A DNA stretch of 64,000 nt, taken from NCBI GenBank assembly GCA_963776345.1, contig CAVZMH010000019.1, positions 32,001 through 96,000 on the forward strand. Reading direction: 5' to 3'. This document shows, piece after piece, positions 8,875-28,323 of the stretch (position 1 is the stretch's first letter; every line of letters starts with the position of its first letter). The DNA comes from an uncultured delta proteobacterium (lineage in GTDB: Bacteria; Myxococcota; Myxococcia; Myxococcales; Myxococcaceae). The notes beneath the pieces were generated by a model, which ran no database searches, was not told the DNA's origin, and worked only from the letters and a program-made list of their open reading frames with translations. The translations under genes were made by a program, and so were the position numbers.

Positions 8875-11800
8875 CTACCGTCGACCGAAGAGTCGCTTCA
8901 GCCCGCCGATGAGGCCGGCGTCCGGCTGCGGCGGGGCGACGGGCGCCTCCGGCTCGGAGGGTGTCCGGGGCTGAGGCGCGGCCTCCGCCTCCTCGCTCGG
9001 CGCGGGCATCTGGAGCTGCAGGGGCTGACGCTTGCCGCTGGGGTTCGTCGCCGACGCGCGGAGCACGCCATCGGTGTCGAGCGACAGGGTCAGCGTCCAG
9101 TCTCCGGCGCGGTCGGCCGCCGCGCGGAGCAGCCCGAGGAAGCTCCGCGGGTCCGGAGCGCGCGCGGGACCCTGGAACACCTGGACCTCCAGCGGCGTGC
9201 CGAGGCCCAGCGTCACGGTGAGCGTCTTCTCCGCCGGGAGCCGGGTGTTGCGATCCAGCACCCGGACCTGACCCAGCTCCTGGGCGACGATCTCCAGCGG
9301 GACGCCGAGCACCTCGTGCAGCGCGGTGCGCGAGGCGCTCTTCGGCCCGGCCGACACCAGGAGATGGGCGAGCGTCGCCGCGCCGCTCGACGCCGCCGAG
9401 GCGGCGTCCACGTCGGTGCGCGCGGTCCGCCCCATGGCCTCCTCGATCATCCGCCGCACGTGGGGAAGCCGGGTCGCGGTGCCCACCAGGACCAGCTCGT
9501 CCAGCGAGTCGGGGGTGAGCGAGGCCGAGCGCAGCACCTCGCGCGCGAGCAGCACACCGCGCTCCACCAGCGCCGTGGTCCGGGCCTCCAGCTCGGCGCG
9601 GGTCAGCCGGGCGCCGCCCTCGAGGACCGCCTCGGCCACCGAGGCGTCCTCGAGCTGGCGCCGGAGCTGCGCCGCCTCGGCGATGCGCCTGCGGAGCACG
9701 CCGGCGTCCGCCCGCGCTCCCTTGTCCAGGGCCAGCGCGATCTGCTCGTCGAAGTTCACCGACCCGAGCGAGGCATCCCCGGCGCAGGCCACCATGTCCA
9801 GGTCGTCACCCGAGGCGGCGAGAACGGCGATGTCGCAGGTGCTCGCGCCCATCCGCCAGACGAGGATGCGGCGCCGGGCCAGGCCCCGACCGTGGGCGAA
9901 GGCCATCGTCGCCGCGGTCGGCGCCTGGACCAGGCGCACTCCCTCGAAGCCGGCGCGCTCGGCCGCCTCCCGGAGCCGCTCTCGCTGGAGGGTGTTGAAG
10001 GCCACGGGCACGCTGAGCACCACCCGTCCTGCGTGGTGCGAGGTCAGCTCCTCGGCCCGGTGACGGACCCAGCGGAGGAGCGTGGCCACGAGCTCGGTCG
10101 CGCCCACCGTCCCGCCCTCCAGCGCGAACGCGGCCTCGCCCCGGTCGTCGGGGACCACCGCCGCCGGCCAGCGGCGGGCGACGGTGCGGGAGGCGTCCGA
10201 CTCGGCCCGTGTCCCGAGGAAAGGAAGGGGCGCTCCGACCCAGAGCGCCGGCTCGGGAGCGTCGGGCGGGAGCATCCTCGGCGGTGCGCCCGGCTCGCGG
10301 ACCAGGCGCACGGGCATCTCGGCGCGCCCGTGCCCGGTGTCCAGCACGAGGGGCTCGGCGCGGCCGTCGTGGAACCAGGCGACGCGGACCGACTCGGGGT
10401 CGATCTCGACGCCGAGCTCGGCCGTGCCGACCGGCGTCGTGCGCACGGGCGTCGGCGTGGCCTCCGGAGCCGAGGAAGGCGGAAGCGTCCCAGCGCGTGC
10501 CTCGGGGGCGCGGACGAGGGAGGGTGCCGGACGCGGCGCGGCGGGGGCCGGTGGGAGCTCGCGCACCTCGGCCCGTGGCAGGTCCGCGCCGGCCTCGATG
10601 GGCACCGCTCCCTCCTCGAGCGTGGGCGCCTCGTCGAGCGGGGGCGGCGGGGGCGGGACGGGGACCTCGTCGGGAGCCGCCGTCTCCATGGAGAGCAGGA
10701 GTGGGATGGGGGCGGTGGGGCGCTCGTGCACCGAGGCCGGCTGCCCGAGCGCCTGCGCGACCTCGTGGAACGAGGACTCCGGAGGATGGAGCGGCTCATC
10801 CCCGCGCACCGGGGCATCGAGCTGGAACCGGGGTTCCGTCGCAGGTGGCGGCTCGTCGAGCTCGGTGACCACCAGCGTTCCGGCGGGTGGGGTGATCGCG
10901 GCGTGAACGTCCGCCGACGCCCGGGTGTGCTCGAGCCCGGCGGGCCGGAGCGGACCGGGGCCCTTGAACTCGGTGACCACCAGCTCGGGCAGCTGCGAGT
11001 CGTCGAGCGGAGGATGGGGCCCCGTGCTCGTGGTCGGTGGCTCGACCGGAGGAGGAGCCGGGACCTCCACGGGCAGGGCCCGCTCCTCGGGCGCCTGCTC
11101 GCTCGCTGCGGCGAGTGCAGCCGCGGGCGTGGGCGATTCCGCCGTGGTGAAGGAGGCCGGGTGACCCGGAGCCCCGCGGGAGGTGTCCTCGACCGAGGTG
11201 TCGGACACCTCGTCGGCCGGGACCTCGGGAGTGACGGGGACGCTCGCGCGAGCGTGCGCCGCCGCCCAGATCTCGAGCGAGGTGTTCTCGAGCAAGGGGT
11301 TTGGCTCGTCGTGCGCCCCGAGCGAGGCTGGAGTCGAGGCAGCCTCCGCCGAGGCCTCGGACGTCTCGGCGGGCGCCTCCTCCGCCTCCGCCTCCGGCGC
11401 GGCGGCCGGCTCCGGAGCCGCTGCCCTCACCGAGGTGTCAGACACCTCGGACGGCGGCTCCTCCAGCTCCGAGGTGGGGGCCGGTTCCGGCTCCGCCGCC
11501 GTCACCTCGCGGTCCGCGCTCTCCGACGTCTCCGGGGAGCCTTCCGATCCGAAGGCGTCCGCCGGGGAGGTGTCCGCCGGGGAGGTGTCAGACACCTCGG
11601 AGGGGGGCTCCTCCAGGGAGGACACCTCGGCCGGGGAGATCTCCGGGAGGGGCGCCGAGAGGAGCGACTCCTGCGGCGGCTCGGCCTCCGGACGTGTCTC
11701 GCTGGTGGCCGGTGGCTCGGGACGTACAGGCCCGGCGGGTGGCGCCCAGGCCTCGCGATGGGCGGGCACGCCGTCGCGTGTCGGAGTGATCGGCGCGGCG

Positions 11801-12147
11801 CTCGGCCCTGCCGGCGGCTCCCACCCGCTCGGGTGCGCCTGGGTCGCCGTGCGGCTGGAGACGATGCGTTCCACCAGCGCCTTGCCCGCCGCCTCCAGGC
11901 GGAGGAAGCGCAGGGTCATCCCCGGGCGCTCGCCCGAGGCGCTCGACCGCACCACCACCCCCTCGCCGCGCAGGAGCGAGCGGCCGTCGGCGAGCACCAG
12001 GTCGAAGAGGAGCTGCGCCCCGACCGGCTTCGGCGCGCGCGTGGCGAGGAAGAAGCCGTCACGGCCCACGTGGGCGCCGTAATGGGCGGCAAACTCGTCC
12101 TCGCTGCGGAAGGGCAGCCGGACGCGGAGCGGCGTCGGCGCGGACAT
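8875..12147 (-). CDS. Hsp70-like protein with N-terminal myxobacterial PilZ-like (TIGR02266-like) domain and long acidic linker; ATPase motifs degenerate
   Basis: N-terminus F..HYGAHVGRDGFFLAT...GEGVVV...GMTLRF. C-terminal half VLSVPVAFNTLQRERLREAAERAG, AGDASLGSVNFD, LVGTATRLPHV, RNTRLPAEK. Confidence 0.8.
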   Translation of the reverse strand: MSAPTPLRVRLPFRSEDEFAAHYGAHVGRDGFFLATRAPKPVGAQLLFDLVLADGRSLLRGEGVVVRSSASGERPGMTLRFLRLEAAGKALVERIVSSRTATQAHPSGWEPPAGPSAAPITPTRDGVPAHREAWAPPAGPVRPEPPATSETRPEAEPPQESLLSAPLPEISPAEVSSLEEPPSEVSDTSPADTSPADAFGSEGSPETSESADREVTAAEPEPAPTSELEEPPSEVSDTSVRAAAPEPAAAPEAEAEEAPAETSEASAEAASTPASLGAHDEPNPLLENTSLEIWAAAHARASVPVTPEVPADEVSDTSVEDTSRGAPGHPASFTTAESPTPAAALAAASEQAPEERALPVEVPAPPPVEPPTTSTGPHPPLDDSQLPELVVTEFKGPGPLRPAGLEHTRASADVHAAITPPAGTLVVTELDEPPPATEPRFQLDAPVRGDEPLHPPESSFHEVAQALGQPASVHERPTAPIPLLLSMETAAPDEVPVPPPPPPLDEAPTLEEGAVPIEAGADLPRAEVRELPPAPAAPRPAPSLVRAPEARAGTLPPSSAPEATPTPVRTTPVGTAELGVEIDPESVRVAWFHDGRAEPLVLDTGHGRAEMPVRLVREPGAPPRMLPPDAPEPALWVGAPLPFLGTRAESDASRTVARRWPAAVVPDDRGEAAFALEGGTVGATELVATLLRWVRHRAEELTSHHAGRVVLSVPVAFNTLQRERLREAAERAGFEGVRLVQAPTAATMAFAHGRGLARRRILVWRMGASTCDIAVLAASGDDLDMVACAGDASLGSVNFDEQIALALDKGARADAGVLRRRIAEAAQLRRQLEDASVAEAVLEGGARLTRAELEARTTALVERGVLLAREVLRSASLTPDSLDELVLVGTATRLPHVRRMIEEAMGRTARTDVDAASAASSGAATLAHLLVSAGPKSASRTALHEVLGVPLEIVAQELGQVRVLDRNTRLPAEKTLTVTLGLGTPLEVQVFQGPARAPDPRSFLGLLRAAADRAGDWTLTLSLDTDGVLRASATNPSGKRQPLQLQMPAPSEEAEAAPQPRTPSEPEAPVAPPQPDAGLIGGLKRLFGRR
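11194..11212. repeat. Palindrome CGAGGTGTCGGACACCTCG (EVSDTS in frame)
   Basis: Read directly. Confidence 0.9.
11430..11450. repeat. Palindrome CCGAGGTGTCAGACACCTCGG (EVSDTS in frame)
   Basis: Read directly. Confidence 0.9.
11582..11598. repeat. Palindrome GAGGTGTCAGACACCTC (EVSDTS in frame), preceded by a tandem GCCGGGGAGGTGTC unit
   Basis: Read directly. Confidence 0.9.
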
Positions 12148-16405: not shown

Positions 16406-17398
16406 TCAGGTGCTCGGAGCAGCCTGGTCGGAGATCTGCTCCCAGGAGATGAGCGCGTGCAGCGGGACCAGCACCTCGGCCCCCGCCGACCCGAGCACCA
16501 GGTCGTAGGGACCCACCGAGAGCAGCGTCTCCTCGATCGCGAAGCCGTTCCGGAGCACGAGCCGGACGCGCCCGCCCACCGCCGGAAGGAATGGCCGAGG
16601 GTCCGAGTGCGGCCGCCGGTCCGGCTCGCGCGCCACCGGCACCGGCTTCTGCGCCAGCCGGGAGTCCCGCTGGAGCCGCGGCAGCAGCACGTCCCAGGTC
16701 GTCCGCCGCGCCAGCGCGCACACCGCGAGCTTCTCCACCCTGCCGGAGCGCTCGAGCACGAACGCCACCGGGTGCGTCTGCAGCAGCACGTCGAGCAGCG
16801 TCCGGTCGGCGAGCACGAACGCCAGCGGCGCCTTGTCCGTCGCCGCAGCCGAGAGCCATCCGTCCACCTGGGCGGCGGAGACGGCGCCGCGCGCCTCCTT
16901 CACCGTCGCCTTGGCGCGGGTCCTCGCCTGCCGGGCGCGGAACTGCTCCAGCGTGAGCCCCGACTGGAGCAGCCCGAAGGCCTCGGCGAGGTCGAGCCCC
17001 GCGTGCTGGGCCATCAGCGCGTAGGCCTGATCGAACCGGCGGGCCTCCTCGGCGTGGAGCTTCCGCCAGATGCGGACGCGCATCTTCCCTTCCAGCTCGC
17101 CCTTGGCGATGCGGGCCGGGACGTGCTCCCTGGCGGCGAGCGCGGTGATGGCCTCGGCGGTCGGTGGCGTGGAGGGGCCGCGCGGCGGCGGCCGCCCGTG
17201 CGGAGCGGCTCCGGGGCGCAGGGGTGGGCGTGGCGGACGGGGGGTGGTGGACGTCGGGCGGACCGGTGCGGGCCCGGCGCCCGCCGTGGGCGTGGGCGCG
17301 GATGAGGGCGAAGGCGAGGGCGAGGGCGGGCCGGTGGCGGGCGCGGGGCGCCGGACCACCTCGACCATCGGTGGACGCCGGCCCTTGCGGTCAGCCAT
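16406..17398 (-). CDS. Hypothetical protein, Pro/Arg-rich N-terminus, two putative Hfq/Sm-like C-terminal domains
   Basis: 330-aa ORF overlapping the upstream lipoprotein gene. C-terminus PFL..V.LVLRNG...LV.LHAL resembles Hfq Sm1/Sm2 (fold call is my inference). Confidence 0.7.
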   Translation of the reverse strand: MADRKGRRPPMVEVVRRPAPATGPPSPSPSPSSAPTPTAGAGPAPVRPTSTTPRPPRPPLRPGAAPHGRPPPRGPSTPPTAEAITALAAREHVPARIAKGELEGKMRVRIWRKLHAEEARRFDQAYALMAQHAGLDLAEAFGLLQSGLTLEQFRARQARTRAKATVKEARGAVSAAQVDGWLSAAATDKAPLAFVLADRTLLDVLLQTHPVAFVLERSGRVEKLAVCALARRTTWDVLLPRLQRDSRLAQKPVPVAREPDRRPHSDPRPFLPAVGGRVRLVLRNGFAIEETLLSVGPYDLVLGSAGAEVLVPLHALISWEQISDQAAPST

Positions 17399-17795
17399 CC
17401 CCGGACGTCTCCAGGACGGGGATGGAGACGCGCCAGTGCCCTGCCTCTCGGACCAGGTGGACCTCCTGCACCGCGCCGTGGGCGGTGACCGCCAGCACCG
17501 CCGTCCGGCCGTCGTCGGAGCGCACCGACACCTGGGCCGGGTCAGGAGGCCTCGGCTCGGCGAGGAGGAGATCCACCGGGGTGGGGCGGAGGGTGCCGCC
17601 GCTCGTCCTGGCGAGCTCCTCGGCCCGCGCGGTCAGCGCGGTGCGACTCTTCTCGGAGAGCAGGGCCAGGGTGCGCGCCTCGTCGTCCCGTTGCACCGCC
17701 GAGAGCAGGCTCCGGTACGCGTCCACCGGCGTGTCGTCGGGGAAGCGGTGACAACCGGCGCTGGCCAGGAGCAGCAGGGCGAGGAGGCGGGGCAC
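17391..17795 (-). CDS. Small lipoprotein (possibly NTF2-like fold)
   Basis: Lipobox LASAGC after a hydrophobic core. TPVDAYRSLLSAV and VHLVREAGHWRV pattern. Confidence 0.75.
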   Translation of the reverse strand: MPRLLALLLLASAGCHRFPDDTPVDAYRSLLSAVQRDDEARTLALLSEKSRTALTARAEELARTSGGTLRPTPVDLLLAEPRPPDPAQVSVRSDDGRTAVLAVTAHGAVQEVHLVREAGHWRVSIPVLETSGDG

Positions 17796-17871
17796 GGCGG
17801 GGGCGCATCGTCCGGCAGGCGCGGCCGGCGCACAAGCGGAGAAACGCGAAGGGGGGCTGCCAGGTAGCGAC

Positions 17872-18492
17872 TCAGCGCTTGACCAGGCGAGCCCTGTACA
17901 CCGGCTCTCCGCTGGCGAGGTAGCGGCGCTCCCGGCTGCTGGGGACTTCCTCGGGGTCTGGCGGATGGAAGGCGCCGGGGCCGAGCGGGTTGTGCCAGCC
18001 GGCCGCCTCCAGGGCCTCGAGCATCTCCTCGGCCCGCGCCCGGACGTCCGTCCGGAGATCGAACACCGCGCCAGGGGCGGCCAGGTCCAGGAGGAGGGCG
18101 GCGAACGCGGGGGTGAGGATGGCGCGCTTGCGGTGCGCCCGCTTCCACCACGGGTCCGGGAACTGGAGGTGGATGCCCGAGAGGCTGCTCGGGGCGAAGA
18201 GGCGGGGGATGATCGCCCGGGCGTCCGCCTCGACCACCCGGAGGTTCGCGAGGCTGCGCGTCCGGGCCCGGTGCTCGAGCTCGCGGGCGTACTTCTTCCG
18301 CCATTCGATCGCCACGTACCGCACCTCGGGGTGCCGGGCGGCGTAGCCCAGGGCGAAGGCCCCGGCCCCGGAGCCGATCTCCAGCTCCAGGCCCCCGGGG
18401 CGGCCGAAGACGGCGCTCCAGTCCGGAGGAGTCGGCAGGGTAAGGAACTCGGCGCCGGCCGGTTCGGGGCGAAGAAGTGGACCTCGGGTCAT
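17872..18492 (-). CDS. trmB: tRNA (guanine-N7)-methyltransferase
   Basis: ATG at 18492. LEIGSGAG, AIE, EADA, FPDPWWKRAHRKR, RTDV, SSRERRY. Confidence 0.88.
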   Translation of the reverse strand: MTRGPLLRPEPAGAEFLTLPTPPDWSAVFGRPGGLELEIGSGAGAFALGYAARHPEVRYVAIEWRKKYARELEHRARTRSLANLRVVEADARAIIPRLFAPSSLSGIHLQFPDPWWKRAHRKRAILTPAFAALLLDLAAPGAVFDLRTDVRARAEEMLEALEAAGWHNPLGPGAFHPPDPEEVPSSRERRYLASGEPVYRARLVKR

Positions 18493-18567: not shown

Positions 18568-19485
18568 ATGAAGGTGCTCCACTCGCTGGAGGACGCGCGT
18601 GCCCTGGCCGGCGTGGCCCTGGCGCTGGGCAACTTCGACGGGGTGCACCTCGGGCACCGGGCGCTCTTCAAGGAGGCGGCCCGGCACGGCCGGCCGGGCG
18701 CGTTGACCTTCGACCCCCACCCCGGGAAGGTGCTGCAGCCGGACCTCGCCCCGAGGCTCATCACCCCGCTGCCGAGGAAGCTCCAGCTGCTCGAGGCCTC
18801 GGGGCTGGACGTGGTGGTGGTGCTCCCCTTCAGCCTGGGCTTCGCCCGCACCCCGGCCCGCGACTTCGAGGCGATGCTCTTCGACCGGGCGAGGCTCAAG
18901 GCGGTGGTGGTCGGGCGGGACTACACCTACGGAGCGCAGCGCACGGGCACGGTGGCCACCCTGCGCGAGGCGGCCACGGCGCGGGAGGTCGCGGTGGCGG
19001 TGGTGGAGCCGGTGACCGTCGGGGGCGTGGTGGCGTCGTCCTCGCGCATCCGCGAGTACATCCTCGAGGGCCGGGTGGGGGCGGCACAGGCCCTGCTCGG
19101 CCGGGCGTTCGACCTGGACGGGGTGGTGGTGAAGGGCGACGGCCGCGGGCGGAGCATCGGCTGGCCCACCGCCAACGTGGACACCCACGGAGAGCTGCTC
19201 CCGGCCTCCGGGGTGTATGCGGTCCGGGTCCGTGCCTCCGACGGCTGGCACGGCGGCGCGGCCAACATCGGAACCAAGCCCACCTTCGGGGGCTCGGCGG
19301 TGACGGTCGAGGTGCACCTGCTCGACTGGTCGGGCGACCTGTACGGGCAGGAGGTGCGGGTCGAGTTCCTGGAGCGGCTGCGCGCCGAGCGCCGCTTCGG
19401 TTCGGTGTCGGAGCTCACGGCGCAGATCCATCGCGACGTCGAGGCGGCCCGGGTGGTGCTTGCACGCACCCCGGCGCTTCCTTGA
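18568..19485 (+). CDS. ribF: Bifunctional riboflavin kinase/FAD synthetase
   Basis: GNFDGVHLGH, TFDPHP, SSSRIR, GRSIGWPTAN, NIGTKPTF, EVHLLD, LRAERRF. Confidence 0.96.
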   Translation: MKVLHSLEDARALAGVALALGNFDGVHLGHRALFKEAARHGRPGALTFDPHPGKVLQPDLAPRLITPLPRKLQLLEASGLDVVVVLPFSLGFARTPARDFEAMLFDRARLKAVVVGRDYTYGAQRTGTVATLREAATAREVAVAVVEPVTVGGVVASSSRIREYILEGRVGAAQALLGRAFDLDGVVVKGDGRGRSIGWPTANVDTHGELLPASGVYAVRVRASDGWHGGAANIGTKPTFGGSAVTVEVHLLDWSGDLYGQEVRVEFLERLRAERRFGSVSELTAQIHRDVEAARVVLARTPALP

Positions 19486-19511
19486 CACCCTTTTTTCCGG
19501 CCCCTTAGATC
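19482..19511 (+). promoter_or_regulatory. Candidate sigma70-type promoter for the pilB operon
   Basis: Perfect TTGACA at 19482-19487, then TTAGAT/TAGATC 17-18 nt downstream, about 70 nt before the pilB ATG. Confidence 0.45.
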
Positions 19512-19580
19512 GAAACCCCCGGGCAGGAGCACCTCCCGGGCGTCCCACGCCATCCTTCCTTCAGGGGTCAAAGCGAACGC

Positions 19581-21275
19581 ATGTCCTCCGGCCGCCTCGG
19601 TGAATTGCTCGTCCGGGAGAACCTGATCTCGGTCCAGCAGCTCCGCAAAGCGCAGGAGGAGCAGCAGCGGAACGGCACCCGCATCGGCTCGGCACTGATC
19701 AAGGTCGGCGCCATCGAGGAGCACAAGCTCACCGACTTCCTGAGCAAGCAGTACGGCGTCCCGGCGATCAACCTGAAGGACTTCGAGATCGACCCGGAGA
19801 TCGTCAAGCTGGTCAAGAAGGAGGTCGCCCAGAAGCACCTGGTCATCCCGGTGAACCGGGCCGGCCAGTCGCTCATCGTGGCGATGAGCGACCCCTCCAA
19901 CATCTACGCGGTCGACGACCTCAAGTTCACCACCGGGTACAACATCGAGCCGGTGGTGGCGTCCGAGCCGAGCATCCGCGAGGCCATCGACCGCTACTAC
20001 GCGGAGAAGGGCCCCACGCTGGACGAGATCCTCGGCGCGGCCGACGACCAGGTGGACGTCGCCGAGCAGGAGGAGGACGAGTTCGACGTCAAGGCGGCCG
20101 AGGACGCTCCGGTCGTCAAGCTGGTGAACCTCGTCCTGGTGGACGCCATCCGGAAGGGCGCCTCGGACATCCACGTCGAGCCCTACGAGAAGGACTTCCG
20201 GGTTCGCTTCCGCATCGACGGCGTGTTGTACGACGTGATGAAGCCGCCGATGAAGCTGAAGAACGCGATCATCAGCCGCCTGAAGATCATGGCCCAGCTG
20301 GACATCAGCGAGCGGCGGCTCCCCCAGGACGGGCGGATCAAGATCAAGACCACCGGCAAGGAGATGGACTTCCGGGTGAGCGTCTGCCCCACGCTCTTCG
20401 GCGAGAAGGTGGTGCTCCGGCTGCTCGACAAGTCCAACCTCCAGCTGGACATGACCAAGCTGGGGTTCGACGCCGAGCCCCTGAAGTGGTTCAAGGAGGC
20501 CATCGACCGGCCCTACGGCATGGTGCTGGTGACCGGGCCCACCGGCTCGGGGAAGACCACCACGCTGTACTCGGCGCTGACCTCACTCAACACCGCCGAC
20601 GTGAACATCAGCACCGCGGAGGATCCGGTGGAGTTCAACTTCGCCGGCATCAACCAGGTGCAGATGCACGATGACATCGGCCTGAACTTCGCCGCCGCCC
20701 TCCGGAGCTTCCTCCGGCAGGACCCGGACATCATCATGATCGGCGAGATCCGCGACTTCGAGACCGCGGAGATCGGGGTGAAGGCCGCCCTCACCGGTCA
20801 CCTGGTCCTCAGCACGCTGCACACCAACGACGCCCCGGGCACCGTGAGCCGGCTCCTGAACATGGGCATCGAGCCGTTCCTGGTGACCGCGTCCCTGAAC
20901 CTCATCCTCGCCCAGCGTCTCGCCCGGAGGCTGTGCCCCGCCTGCAAGCGCCCGGCGAAGAACATCGAGGAGCAGGCGCTGCTCGACGCCGGTGTGCCGA
21001 CGGACAAGATCGGCACCTTCACCGTCTACGAGAAGGCCGGGTGCCGCGAGTGCAACGACCGCGGCTACCGGGGCCGCGTCGCCATCTACGAGGTCATGCC
21101 GTTCTGGGACGGCCTCAAGGAGCTGGTGATCAACGGCGCCTCGGCCGCGGAGCTGAAGCAGGAGTCCATCCGGCTGGGGATGCAGACCCTGCGGATGGCC
21201 GCTCTCGGCAAGATGATGGCCGGGATGACCACCCTCGAAGAGGTGGTGGGCAACACCGCGCCGGACCGCTTCTAG
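19581..21275 (+). CDS. pilB: Type IVa pilus extension ATPase with N-terminal MshEN-like domain
   Basis: RLGELLVRENL..QL (MshEN-like), ASDIHVEP, ERRLPQDGR, GPTGSGKTTT, RQDPDIIMIGEIRD, CPAC..CREC. Confidence 0.97.
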   Translation: MSSGRLGELLVRENLISVQQLRKAQEEQQRNGTRIGSALIKVGAIEEHKLTDFLSKQYGVPAINLKDFEIDPEIVKLVKKEVAQKHLVIPVNRAGQSLIVAMSDPSNIYAVDDLKFTTGYNIEPVVASEPSIREAIDRYYAEKGPTLDEILGAADDQVDVAEQEEDEFDVKAAEDAPVVKLVNLVLVDAIRKGASDIHVEPYEKDFRVRFRIDGVLYDVMKPPMKLKNAIISRLKIMAQLDISERRLPQDGRIKIKTTGKEMDFRVSVCPTLFGEKVVLRLLDKSNLQLDMTKLGFDAEPLKWFKEAIDRPYGMVLVTGPTGSGKTTTLYSALTSLNTADVNISTAEDPVEFNFAGINQVQMHDDIGLNFAAALRSFLRQDPDIIMIGEIRDFETAEIGVKAALTGHLVLSTLHTNDAPGTVSRLLNMGIEPFLVTASLNLILAQRLARRLCPACKRPAKNIEEQALLDAGVPTDKIGTFTVYEKAGCRECNDRGYRGRVAIYEVMPFWDGLKELVINGASAAELKQESIRLGMQTLRMAALGKMMAGMTTLEEVVGNTAPDRF

Positions 21276-25295: not shown

Positions 25296-26683
<1,388 letters not shown>

Positions 26684-26703
26684 CGCTGCTGGGCCAGACC
26701 GGC

Positions 26704-26718
26704 TGACGAATTTCGTCA
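26704..26718. promoter_or_regulatory. Palindrome TGACGAA-T-TTCGTCA, candidate PilR enhancer site
   Basis: Perfect 7-1-7 inverted repeat about 65-80 nt upstream of the sigma54 element. Confidence 0.55.
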
Positions 26719-26781
26719 CGCCGGGTCATGGTCGGGGCGGTGCCGGACGAGGATCCGGGGACTTGCAGCGCGGGAGGGGCC

Positions 26782-26797
26782 TGGAACGCTCCGTGCA
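26782..26797 (+). promoter_or_regulatory. Sigma54 (-24/-12) promoter of pilA
   Basis: TGGAACG-CTCC-GTGCA versus consensus TGGCACG-N4-TTGCW, with correct GG/GC spacing, upstream of pilA and next to pilR. Confidence 0.75.
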
Positions 26798-26867
26798 CAT
26801 GCCCCCCGCCGAGCTGCTCCTCCCCCCGGGGCGGCCGCTCATCACCCGAATCAGGAGTCACTCCCAC

Positions 26868-27539
26868 ATGAAGAAGCTGCACAAGGGCTTCACGCTCATC
26901 GAGCTGATGATCGTGGTCGCCATCATCGGAATCCTCGCCGCCCTCGCCATCCCCAACTTCATCCGCTTCCAGGCTCGCTCGAAGCAGAGCGAAGTGAAGG
27001 CGAACCTCAAGTCCCTCTTCACCGCCGAGCGCTCCTACTACCAGGAGCACGACACCTACTCCGAGTGCATCCGGAAGATCGGGTTCAACCCGGAGCGCGG
27101 CAATCGCTACCACTACGTCGTCAACAACACTCTGAACAACGAAAACTGCAACACTAACGAGTTCCGGGACAACGCCGCCGGCATCACCGCCAGCACCGAT
27201 GGCGCCGTCCGGGCCGATACCTTCAAGTTTGGCACCGGCGCGGGCATCACCGCGGCGAACGGCGCAGTTGCAGTGCTGTATGCCCCCATCGCCCCCTTTG
27301 GCACCGCGATCGTTGCTGTCGGCAACCTGGTGGGCGTGAGCCCGGCCACTCCTGATGCGAACGGCTCGTTCGGTGGCGCGGCTCAGGGAGACATCGACAG
27401 CGACCTCCAAGTCGACCTCTGGTACATCTCCAGCCTGTCGAGCACCACCGCTGGCATCTGCCCGCTGCTGGCTGGCATCGACCAGAACGCTCCTGGTGGC
27501 GAGCCGAAGAACACCTACAACGACGTGAACTGCCCGTAG
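26868..27539 (+). CDS. pilA: Type IVa major pilin, copy 1 (223 aa)
   Basis: [49 protein letters not shown] class III signal with E5, myxobacterial PERGNRY motif, 4 Cys. Confidence 0.95.
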
Positions 27540-27562
27540 TCGCGGGGAGCGTCGGCAGCACA

Positions 27563-27604
27563 GAGGGCCCCGTCGCGGGAATTCGCCGCGATGGGGCCTT
27601 CTTC
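27563..27604 (+). terminator. Hairpin (terminator or stabiliser) after the first pilin
   Basis: GAGGGCCCCGTCGCGG-GAATTCG-CCGCGATGGGGCCTTC followed by TTC; short U-tract. Confidence 0.65.
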
Positions 27605-27645
27605 AATCGCTGGAGAGGACTCCTTCGGGCACCTTCACTCGCCTC

Positions 27646-28323
27646 ATGAATCCACGCCACAGAGGCTTCACGCTCATCGAGTTGATGATCGTCGTGGCGG
27701 TGATCGCTCTTCTTGCCGCGCTGGCGATTCCCAACTTCATCCGCTTCCAGGCGCGGTCGAAGCAGGCCGAGGTCAAGGCGAATCTCAAGGCGGTCTTCAC
27801 TGCCGAGCGGTCCTACTTCCAGGAGCACTCCTGCTACACCAGCTGCACGAAGAAGGTGGGGTTCGCTCCGGAGCGGGGTAACCGGTATCGGTATTCTCTC
27901 AACGTGATCACCCGAGGCGACGAGACCTGCAACACGACCGAGAACAGGTCGACGGCTGCAGGCATCAGCCTGGGGACCGATGGCGACATCCTGGCCGACA
28001 CCTTCAAGCATGGGACCGGACCAGGGATCACCGCCGCCAACGGCCCCAAGCCCGCCCCCCTGTACGTCGCGACTCAGCCGTCGGGAACCTCCATCGTCGT
28101 GCAGAGCGACCTGGTAGGAGTCGTACCCGCCTTCGCTGACTCTGCCGGCTCCTTCGGGGTGGCCGCGCAAGGCGACATCGACACCGACCTCAACCTGGAC
28201 CTCTGGTACGTTTCCAGCGTCTCCTCGACCACCACCGGCGTGTGCCCCGTCCTCGTGGGCATCGGCCAGCAGGTTCCTGGTGGAGAGCCAAAGAACACCT
28301 ACAATGATGTCGACTGCCCGTGA
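27646..28323 (+). CDS. Second pilA-like type IVa pilin (225 aa)
   Basis: [42 protein letters not shown]. Collinear with copy 1 through to [15 protein letters not shown]. Confidence 0.92.
   Translation: MNPRHRGFTLIELMIVVAVIALLAALAIPNFIRFQARSKQAEVKANLKAVFTAERSYFQEHSCYTSCTKKVGFAPERGNRYRYSLNVITRGDETCNTTENRSTAAGISLGTDGDILADTFKHGTGPGITAANGPKPAPLYVATQPSGTSIVVQSDLVGVVPAFADSAGSFGVAAQGDIDTDLNLDLWYVSSVSSTTTGVCPVLVGIGQQVPGGEPKNTYNDVDCP

Follow-up and report, generated by a model that had tools for sequence, protein, structure and literature searches.

The open reading frame at positions 16406–17398 (minus strand) of the window, meaning the whole 64-kb stretch of Myxococcaceae DNA analysed here, encodes a protein of 330 aa that, judged by profile comparison and structure modelling, belongs to the Sm superfamily and is a homologue of Hfq, without being a canonical Hfq. 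The gene occurs once in this genome and is the ortholog of MXAN_5793 of Myxococcus xanthus, which has been linked to Pxr, the small RNA that acts as a brake on fruiting-body development in that organism. We lean, if modestly, towards the interpretation that the product is a divergent two-domain Hfq, likely assembled into a trimeric six-domain ring, which would bind Pxr as an Hfq-like RNA chaperone.

Domain organization and predicted fold

The frame is open throughout and ends with the residues in which the first-pass annotation had recognized an Hfq pattern by eye; the reading frame is real and is conserved among homologues. The N-terminal tail (aa 1–77, positions 17168–17398, minus strand as for all segments below), described earlier as basic, Pro-rich and probably disordered, was found to contain 25 Pro residues and to carry a net charge of +10; homologues differ in its length and align poorly, and disorder is likewise suggested by its composition and by the alignment. 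It is followed by a conserved, basic and all-helical domain (aa 78–172, 16883–17167) with 17 Arg/Lys residues and a mean column conservation of 0.73, the highest of any segment within the clade. When modelled alone, this domain was predicted to form six helices (pLDDT 94); its best match among known structures had a Z of 3.7 and Foldseek returned no match at E ≤ 0.001, which does not imply a new fold. Two helical sub-repeats spotted by eye in the sequence were not borne out by profile comparison. The remainder of the chain consists of a first predicted Sm/Hfq-fold domain of a helix and five strands (aa 175–233, 16700–16876), a conserved linker that in the alignment ends in an invariant Arg (R262) and an Asp (aa 234–266, 16601–16699), and a second predicted Sm/Hfq-fold domain, assigned by profile and structure match, with the motifs RNG, G-x-[FY]-D and PLHA (aa 268–321, 16436–16597). 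The more degenerate copy proposed to precede the C-terminal one was located at aa 178–229 (16867–16712).

AlphaFold2 modelling of residues 78–330 (pLDDT 87, pTM 0.74) yielded the helical block followed by two units of a helix plus five strands each. In a comparison of the model with 48,161 chains, Hfq took all of the first seven places (Z 9.4–10.0). The first domain matched Caulobacter Hfq (6gwk) with a Z of 10.0 and an rmsd of 1.5 Å over 59 aligned residues, and the second matched 2qtx with a Z of 7.6 and an rmsd of 2.0 Å over 54. Foldseek gave nothing at E ≤ 0.001 for the whole core, and Hfq made up most of its top rows, with a probability of 1.00. Both predicted domains have the N-terminal helix and the bent, five-stranded antiparallel sheet of the Sm/LSm fold, and both are accordingly predicted to adopt the Hfq/Sm fold. 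The Sm/SH3-like barrels expected from the original proposal of a divergent two-domain Sm protein thus appeared in the model with Hfq as the top match, and the sequence profiles described below reached no family other than Hfq. With two such domains in one chain, the canonical homohexamer of single domains is impossible; a homotrimer prediction (three copies of core residues 28–247, 103-row alignment) returned a score of 0.00, which speaks neither for nor against a trimer.

Sequence homology to Hfq and a second clade

Single-sequence searches of Pfam, NCBIfam and the PDB missed Hfq or found it marginally (E 1.6–2.1): no Pfam or NCBIfam model matched the 330-aa protein or its M. xanthus ortholog, and the former stayed below the cutoff of the curated Hfq HMMs (TIGR02383/PF17209). 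A 50-row family profile run against PDB sequences gave 11 matches at E ≤ 10, every one of them Hfq, the best of which (E 0.0026) fell on the last domain. For this second domain (aa 268–321), HHalign gave a probability of 84% against Hfq, and the C-terminal-domain profile scored E. coli Hfq at 13.3 bits, a value reached by none of 1000 shuffles (830 scored). The first-domain profile of the window's clade scored E. coli Hfq at 4.0 bits, a value at least equalled by 10 of the 845 shuffles scored, and the corresponding profile of a second clade, introduced below, scored it at 8.5 bits, equalled by none of 873; the domain 2 profiles of both clades placed E. coli Hfq above all scored shuffles. Within the window's clade, domains 1 and 2 gave no sequence repeat signal against each other (HHalign probability 2%). 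Profile methods thus give strong evidence of homology to Hfq for domain 2 and indirect evidence for domain 1, whose weak sequence signal is supported by the predicted fold and by the first domain of the second clade. The match to Hfq/LSm families anticipated in the first-pass annotation held for the fold and the family profile, and failed as a direct PF17209 match of the 330-aa protein. In the ESM Atlas, unnamed Myxococcota clusters ranked on top, and the Hfq clusters found at 0.78–0.80 serve as a lead only.

With residues 78–330 as query, 420 homologues were retrieved among 8000 candidates, the named ones being mostly from Myxococcaceae. Automated labels already call some family members Hfq, as in the JGI label 'sRNA-binding regulator protein Hfq' on 3 among the 120 homologues listed. 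An exhaustive profile search gave 77 cluster representatives. Eight distant, long proteins of the same layout were scanned, seven of which matched Pfam Hfq or Hfq_1 and only two of which (P0178 and P0196) passed the curated PF17209 cutoff. These relatives led to the second clade, comprising 203 proteins at E ≤ 0.001 with the same layout as the window's clade; the two clades aligned with an HHalign probability of 97% over 215 columns.

The second clade is represented by metagenomic loci (L105–L148, e.g. L108:5944-9145), in which an rdgC-like gene is conserved downstream (its ORF cluster covers 34 of the 44 loci) and a gene with a metallo-beta-lactamase fold also adjoins. Other relatives include fusion variants with N-terminal TPR (P0196, P0328) or with epimerase-type Pfam families (P0372), proteins with a C-terminal extension that by eye resembles ParB (P0183, P0190), and P0195, in which two canonical Hfq domains stand in tandem.

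The 330-aa protein has in common with bacterial Hfq (TIGR02383, PF17209) the predicted helix plus five-strand Sm fold, a short L4 loop, the NG turn, the F42-type aromatic and H57-A58 (the last three in domain 2), as well as a tie to sRNA function. It differs from it in having a single chain with two divergent Sm domains, in the 95-aa helical domain and 77-aa Pro-rich tail in front of them, in having PLH for YKH, in not keeping the distal Y25 and K31, and in lacking an HMM match. Tandem Hfq proteins (NF010691, 176 aa; P0195, 155 aa) provide a precedent for two Hfq domains per chain. Both domains of P0195 are canonical, with YKHAI, whereas those of the 330-aa protein are degenerate, different from each other and accompanied by extra domains; the NF010691 HMM gave no match to it at E ≤ 0.5.

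Conservation of RNA-pocket residues

For residue counts, the domains were laid gap-free on E. coli Hfq, using the 91 rows of the window's clade that remained after removal of sequences with <30% identity or >30% gaps, and 117 rows of the second clade. The NG and HA positions, on whose conservation the first-pass annotation had made its reading depend, proved nearly invariant in domain 2: N284 (Hfq N28) is Asn in 90 of 91 rows and G285 (G29) is Gly in all, and in Sm2 H314 (H57) is His in 91/91 and A315 (A58) Ala in 88/91. The F42 equivalent is aromatic in all 91 rows. The Sm2 motif [YF]KHAI is absent from domain 2, where PLHA is found instead (P 91/91, L 87/91, H and A as above). Domain 2 furthermore does not have Hfq Y25, K31, D40, Y55 or K56, the distal-site positions Y25 and K31 being variable. 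Domain 1 has EKL at the Sm2 position and a Lys equivalent to K56 in 89 of 91 rows, and has lost the equivalents of F42 and H57. Among the further proximal-pocket positions, Q41 is lost and Q8 was not confidently placed. The second clade is nearer to Hfq: its domain 2 reads FRHA, and its domain 1 has a Tyr in place of F42.

We take F42, K56 and H57 (also Q8 and Q41) to form the proximal U pocket of Hfq, and Y25 and K31 its distal A-binding pocket. With these assignments, the residue counts of the two domains suggest that the proximal RNA pocket is retained in part, split between both domains, and that the distal site is gone. The three-surface picture of Hfq is given in PMC3710371.

Genomic locus and identification of the M. 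xanthus ortholog

The 330-aa gene is the last of a likely operon whose first gene is of the trmB type (17872–18492, minus strand; MXAN_5790 position by synteny and the DK1622 annotation). Between them lies a lipoprotein gene (17391–17795, minus strand; MXAN_5792 position), the stop of which overlaps the start of the 330-aa frame by 8 bp. ribF and pilB, identified by Pfam, diverge from this unit (18568–21275, plus strand) and form a conserved neighbourhood, which does not in itself show a functional partnership. The divergent order, already noted in the first-pass annotation, is shared across 80 genomic loci as pilB-ribF facing away from trmB-[response regulator]-lipoprotein-double-Sm gene; pilB lies upstream in 49 of the 51 loci whose upstream sequence extends to 4.5 kb or more, and ribF and trmB likewise. 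A REC-GGDEF gene (MXAN_5791) stands between trmB and the lipoprotein gene in Myxococcus and relatives and is missing in this lineage (17795–17872). A local search for a sigma-70 promoter or terminator found none, and an Rfam scan of the window gave no match. Elsewhere in the window, two similar pilA-like major pilin genes were seen by eye in tandem after pilR (26655–28323, plus strand), and a 1090-aa protein (8875–12147, minus strand) has a weak match to PilZ at its N-terminus (E 0.059) and an Hsp70 domain at its C-terminus, as well as a long linker that is acidic and rich in Pro.

In the M. xanthus genome (locus L085), the ortholog is the sole ORF between two genes; their products agree letter for letter with ABF90970.1 and ABF86056.1, and the ABF90136.1 product is encoded next upstream. 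According to the supplementary table of PMC11928866, these accessions are MXAN_5792, MXAN_5794 and MXAN_5791, respectively. Since its flanking genes encode the MXAN_5792 and MXAN_5794 products, its position identifies the ortholog as MXAN_5793; no direct match to that gene's accession, ABF91950, was made. In the same table, MXAN_5793 appears as a hypothetical protein with expression during growth and no change in a pxr deletion (base mean 446, log2FC 0.27, p.adj 0.78). Close Myxococcus homologues share about 58–59% identity with the 330-aa protein over the core. In M. xanthus, a cupredoxin gene and an RNase T-type exonuclease/DinG helicase gene lie downstream of the ortholog and share its strand; no such genes follow in the window's genome. 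MXAN_5793 is not pxrA, which is MXAN_1079.

Pxr genetics and the reported absence of Hfq

Chen et al. (2019) reportedly recovered rnd, rnhA, stkA and Mxan_5793 as suppressor loci, and are said to have called the last a gene new to Cystobacterineae. A four-locus Pxr suppressor screen with rnd among its loci is also described in PMC10217877, where it is further suggested that Pxr-S may require a stabilizing partner and a second factor is proposed for its formation. In the main text of a 2026 preprint, MXAN_5793 is reported to affect Pxr-S function, and insertions in the gene show negligible aggregation scores, a positive starvation-spore score and a negative glycerol-spore score. The word 'Hfq' occurs 0 times in that main text; since its authors used the AlphaFold database, the fold might already be mentioned in their SI or Fig. 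S3. A literature search, which left most subscription papers outside its scope, found no paper that gives the MXAN_5793 gene an Hfq fold.

PMC5684412, PMC5568312 and bioRxiv 10.1101/2025.09.11.675593 state that M. xanthus or the myxobacteria have no Hfq, and the first two propose another, unidentified chaperone for Pxr. In agreement with these papers and with what the first-pass annotation had stated for M. xanthus, Pfam Hfq matched none of 401 genomes of the phylum and 5 of 14 controls, and no canonical hfq was found in the window's genome. The earlier suggestion that the gene might encode a missing RNA chaperone gains a genetic link in the reported effect of its ortholog on Pxr-S.

Co-occurrence with Pxr

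The new family profile detected the gene in 179 of 184 genomes from the window's own family and in none of 108 genomes from the other families of the order; elsewhere in the phylum it was found in two genomes, both with the second clade. Of the five family genomes in which the gene was not detected, four look like cases of an assembly gap: in G214 and G396 a contig ends close to trmB, and in G359 and G360 trmB itself went undetected. Pxr (RF01812) was detected in 47 of 51 family genomes and, marginally, in 2 of 99 others. In three of the four family misses there are weak full-length matches in which the conserved loop is exact and the last stem carries a U tail. With these counted, 49 of the 51 have the gene as well as Pxr, one has neither (G174, 100% complete, with trmB-ribF-pilB intact), and one has Pxr alone (G214, where trmB lies 1.8 kb from a contig end); this single Pxr-only count and its explanation as a gap rest on G214, an unpublished genome. 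The pattern reduces to a single common origin plus a single common loss, so that the genomes are not independent pieces of evidence; it is consistent with the proposed model and does not constitute a statistical test.

The window's genome contains a Pxr-like RNA (G000:C21:14849-14958, minus strand; locus L083:1501-1610) that scores 48.1 bits, where the gathering score is 80, and has the conserved first loop and a folding z of -3.65. By eye, no sigma-54 regulator/kinase pair adjoins it, unlike pxr of M. xanthus. Divergent Pxr homologues missed by the Rfam model were seen at L101–L104 (G185, G397, G208 and G101; 27–32 bits); their first loop is exact, their last stem has a U tail, and they have upstream motifs in common. 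A search with the exact loop pattern missed the positive control G086 and is uninformative. Five Pxr-like copies stand in tandem at G190:C1:8811591-8812986; Pxr paralogues are described in PMC5568312. Second, partial copies of the double-Sm gene with 38% identity occur in two genomes of the genus Myxococcus (G030:C502:3577-4080 and G014:C241:15139-15630), one with an internal stop. The small assemblies G086 and G217 (2.1–2.7 Mb; L089, L088 and L093) have kept the double-Sm gene as well as a Pxr-like RNA, and the pair may therefore predate or outlast fruiting.

Proposed function and alternative explanations

In the mechanism that we favour, the MXAN_5793-type protein of Myxococcaceae would place a basic helical domain ahead of its two Hfq/Sm domains, and three chains, by analogy with the behaviour of the Sm family, would close into a six-domain ring. 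The central, proximal face of this ring would grip the U-rich 3' end that follows the terminal stem of Pxr, through the F42 and H57 equivalents of domain 2 and the K56 equivalent of domain 1, and the basic helical domain and tail could stand in for the lost distal face by holding GC-rich RNA. Pxr-S would thereby be protected, or its pairing with target mRNAs aided, and loss of the protein would release the developmental brake. A more far-reaching version, which we put forward tentatively and regard as falling somewhat short of probable, is that the Hfq of Myxococcaceae is a fused, asymmetric one: a trimer of alternating A and B Sm domains that mimics a heteromeric ring, has a helical arm for GC-rich RNA, arrived together with Pxr, and acts as a general sRNA chaperone behind the growth-to-development checkpoint, with the second, uncultured clade following the same design. 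Several considerations weigh against the favoured mechanism. Domain 2 has given up Hfq Y25, K31, D40, Y55 and K56, and domain 1 the equivalents of F42 and H57; an Sm fold alone does not demonstrate RNA binding, as the analogy with cyanobacterial Hfq, which acts through a protein partner, illustrates; and insertions in MXAN_5793 lower the number of glycerol-induced spores, which Pxr alone may not explain.

An alternative that we judge unlikely but worth serious attention is that the Sm domains form a protein scaffold, e.g. an adaptor for a ribonuclease active on Pxr, such as RNase D, which it would recruit or control. The loss of most Hfq RNA-contact residues would fit such a role, whereas the aromatic at F42 and the His at H57, presumed RNA-pocket positions kept in all 91 rows of domain 2, argue against it, as does the second clade with its F42, F-R-H-A and domain 1 Tyr. 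That the Pxr suppressor screen also found rnd, and that a second Pxr-S formation factor has been proposed (PMC10217877), are points in favour of a scaffold, and Sm domains can act as protein-interaction modules (PMC3710371).

It appears less probable still that the connection to Pxr is indirect or polar, with insertions silencing downstream genes and the Sm protein serving other RNAs or an unrelated process. M. xanthus does have the cupredoxin and exonuclease/helicase genes downstream on the same strand, and the second clade adjoins rdgC and a metallo-beta-lactamase-fold gene. Against this alternative, the window's genome has the gene last in its unit with no such genes behind it, the main text of the 2026 preprint names MXAN_5793 and neither MXAN_5794 nor MXAN_5795, and G174 lacks the gene as well as Pxr.

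A partnership with PilB at the base of the type IV pilus, the other role raised by the first-pass annotation, fared poorly and is now very improbable. It was suggested by the divergently adjacent pilB (49 of 51 informative loci) and by Synechocystis Hfq, which is one of several fold matches sharing the top rank (Z 9.9), and the protein resembles cyanobacterial Hfq (NF047718) in its divergent fold, its eroded RNA-binding residues and its tie to pilB, here one of genomic proximity. However, cyanobacterial Hfq is a single-domain protein that binds the tetra-Cys tail of PilB1, a feature specific to cyanobacteria (PMC4390875), whereas the window's PilB (564 aa) ends just after its ATPase domain (172–556) and does not have this tail. 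In the preprint's pooled mutants, insertions in 13 pil genes are depleted from early aggregates and spores and accumulate in non-aggregated cells, and MXAN_5793 insertions do not behave in this way. Moreover, pilB occurs with no homologue of the gene beside it in 5/5 genomes of other families and in G174, and no pilB/T/C match was seen in the 44 loci of the second clade, many of which are short. Because trmB and ribF are as syntenic as pilB, the block looks like conserved gene order. That the two barrels are non-oligomerizing SH3/Sm-like modules forming no ring, as in RimP or BirA, is scarcely credible. In its favour, RimP, BirA and designed SH3 barrels match the model with Z 5.8–7.3; against it, the top seven rows are all Hfq (Z 9.4–10.0) and no family but Hfq is reached by the sequence profiles.

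Among bacterial sRNAs that govern multicellular development, Pxr is the best studied, and the value of the proposed Hfq-like chaperone lies in joining a predicted fold to Pxr genetics and to statements, repeated from 2017 to 2025, that no Hfq is present. A Pxr-linked gene with two predicted Hfq-fold domains offers one candidate, with specific residues and existing mutants. It would add a two-domain Hfq architecture with a helical arm, represented by hundreds of sequences, and, if the proposal is true, M. xanthus as an example of an 'Hfq-less' bacterium would need to be revised.
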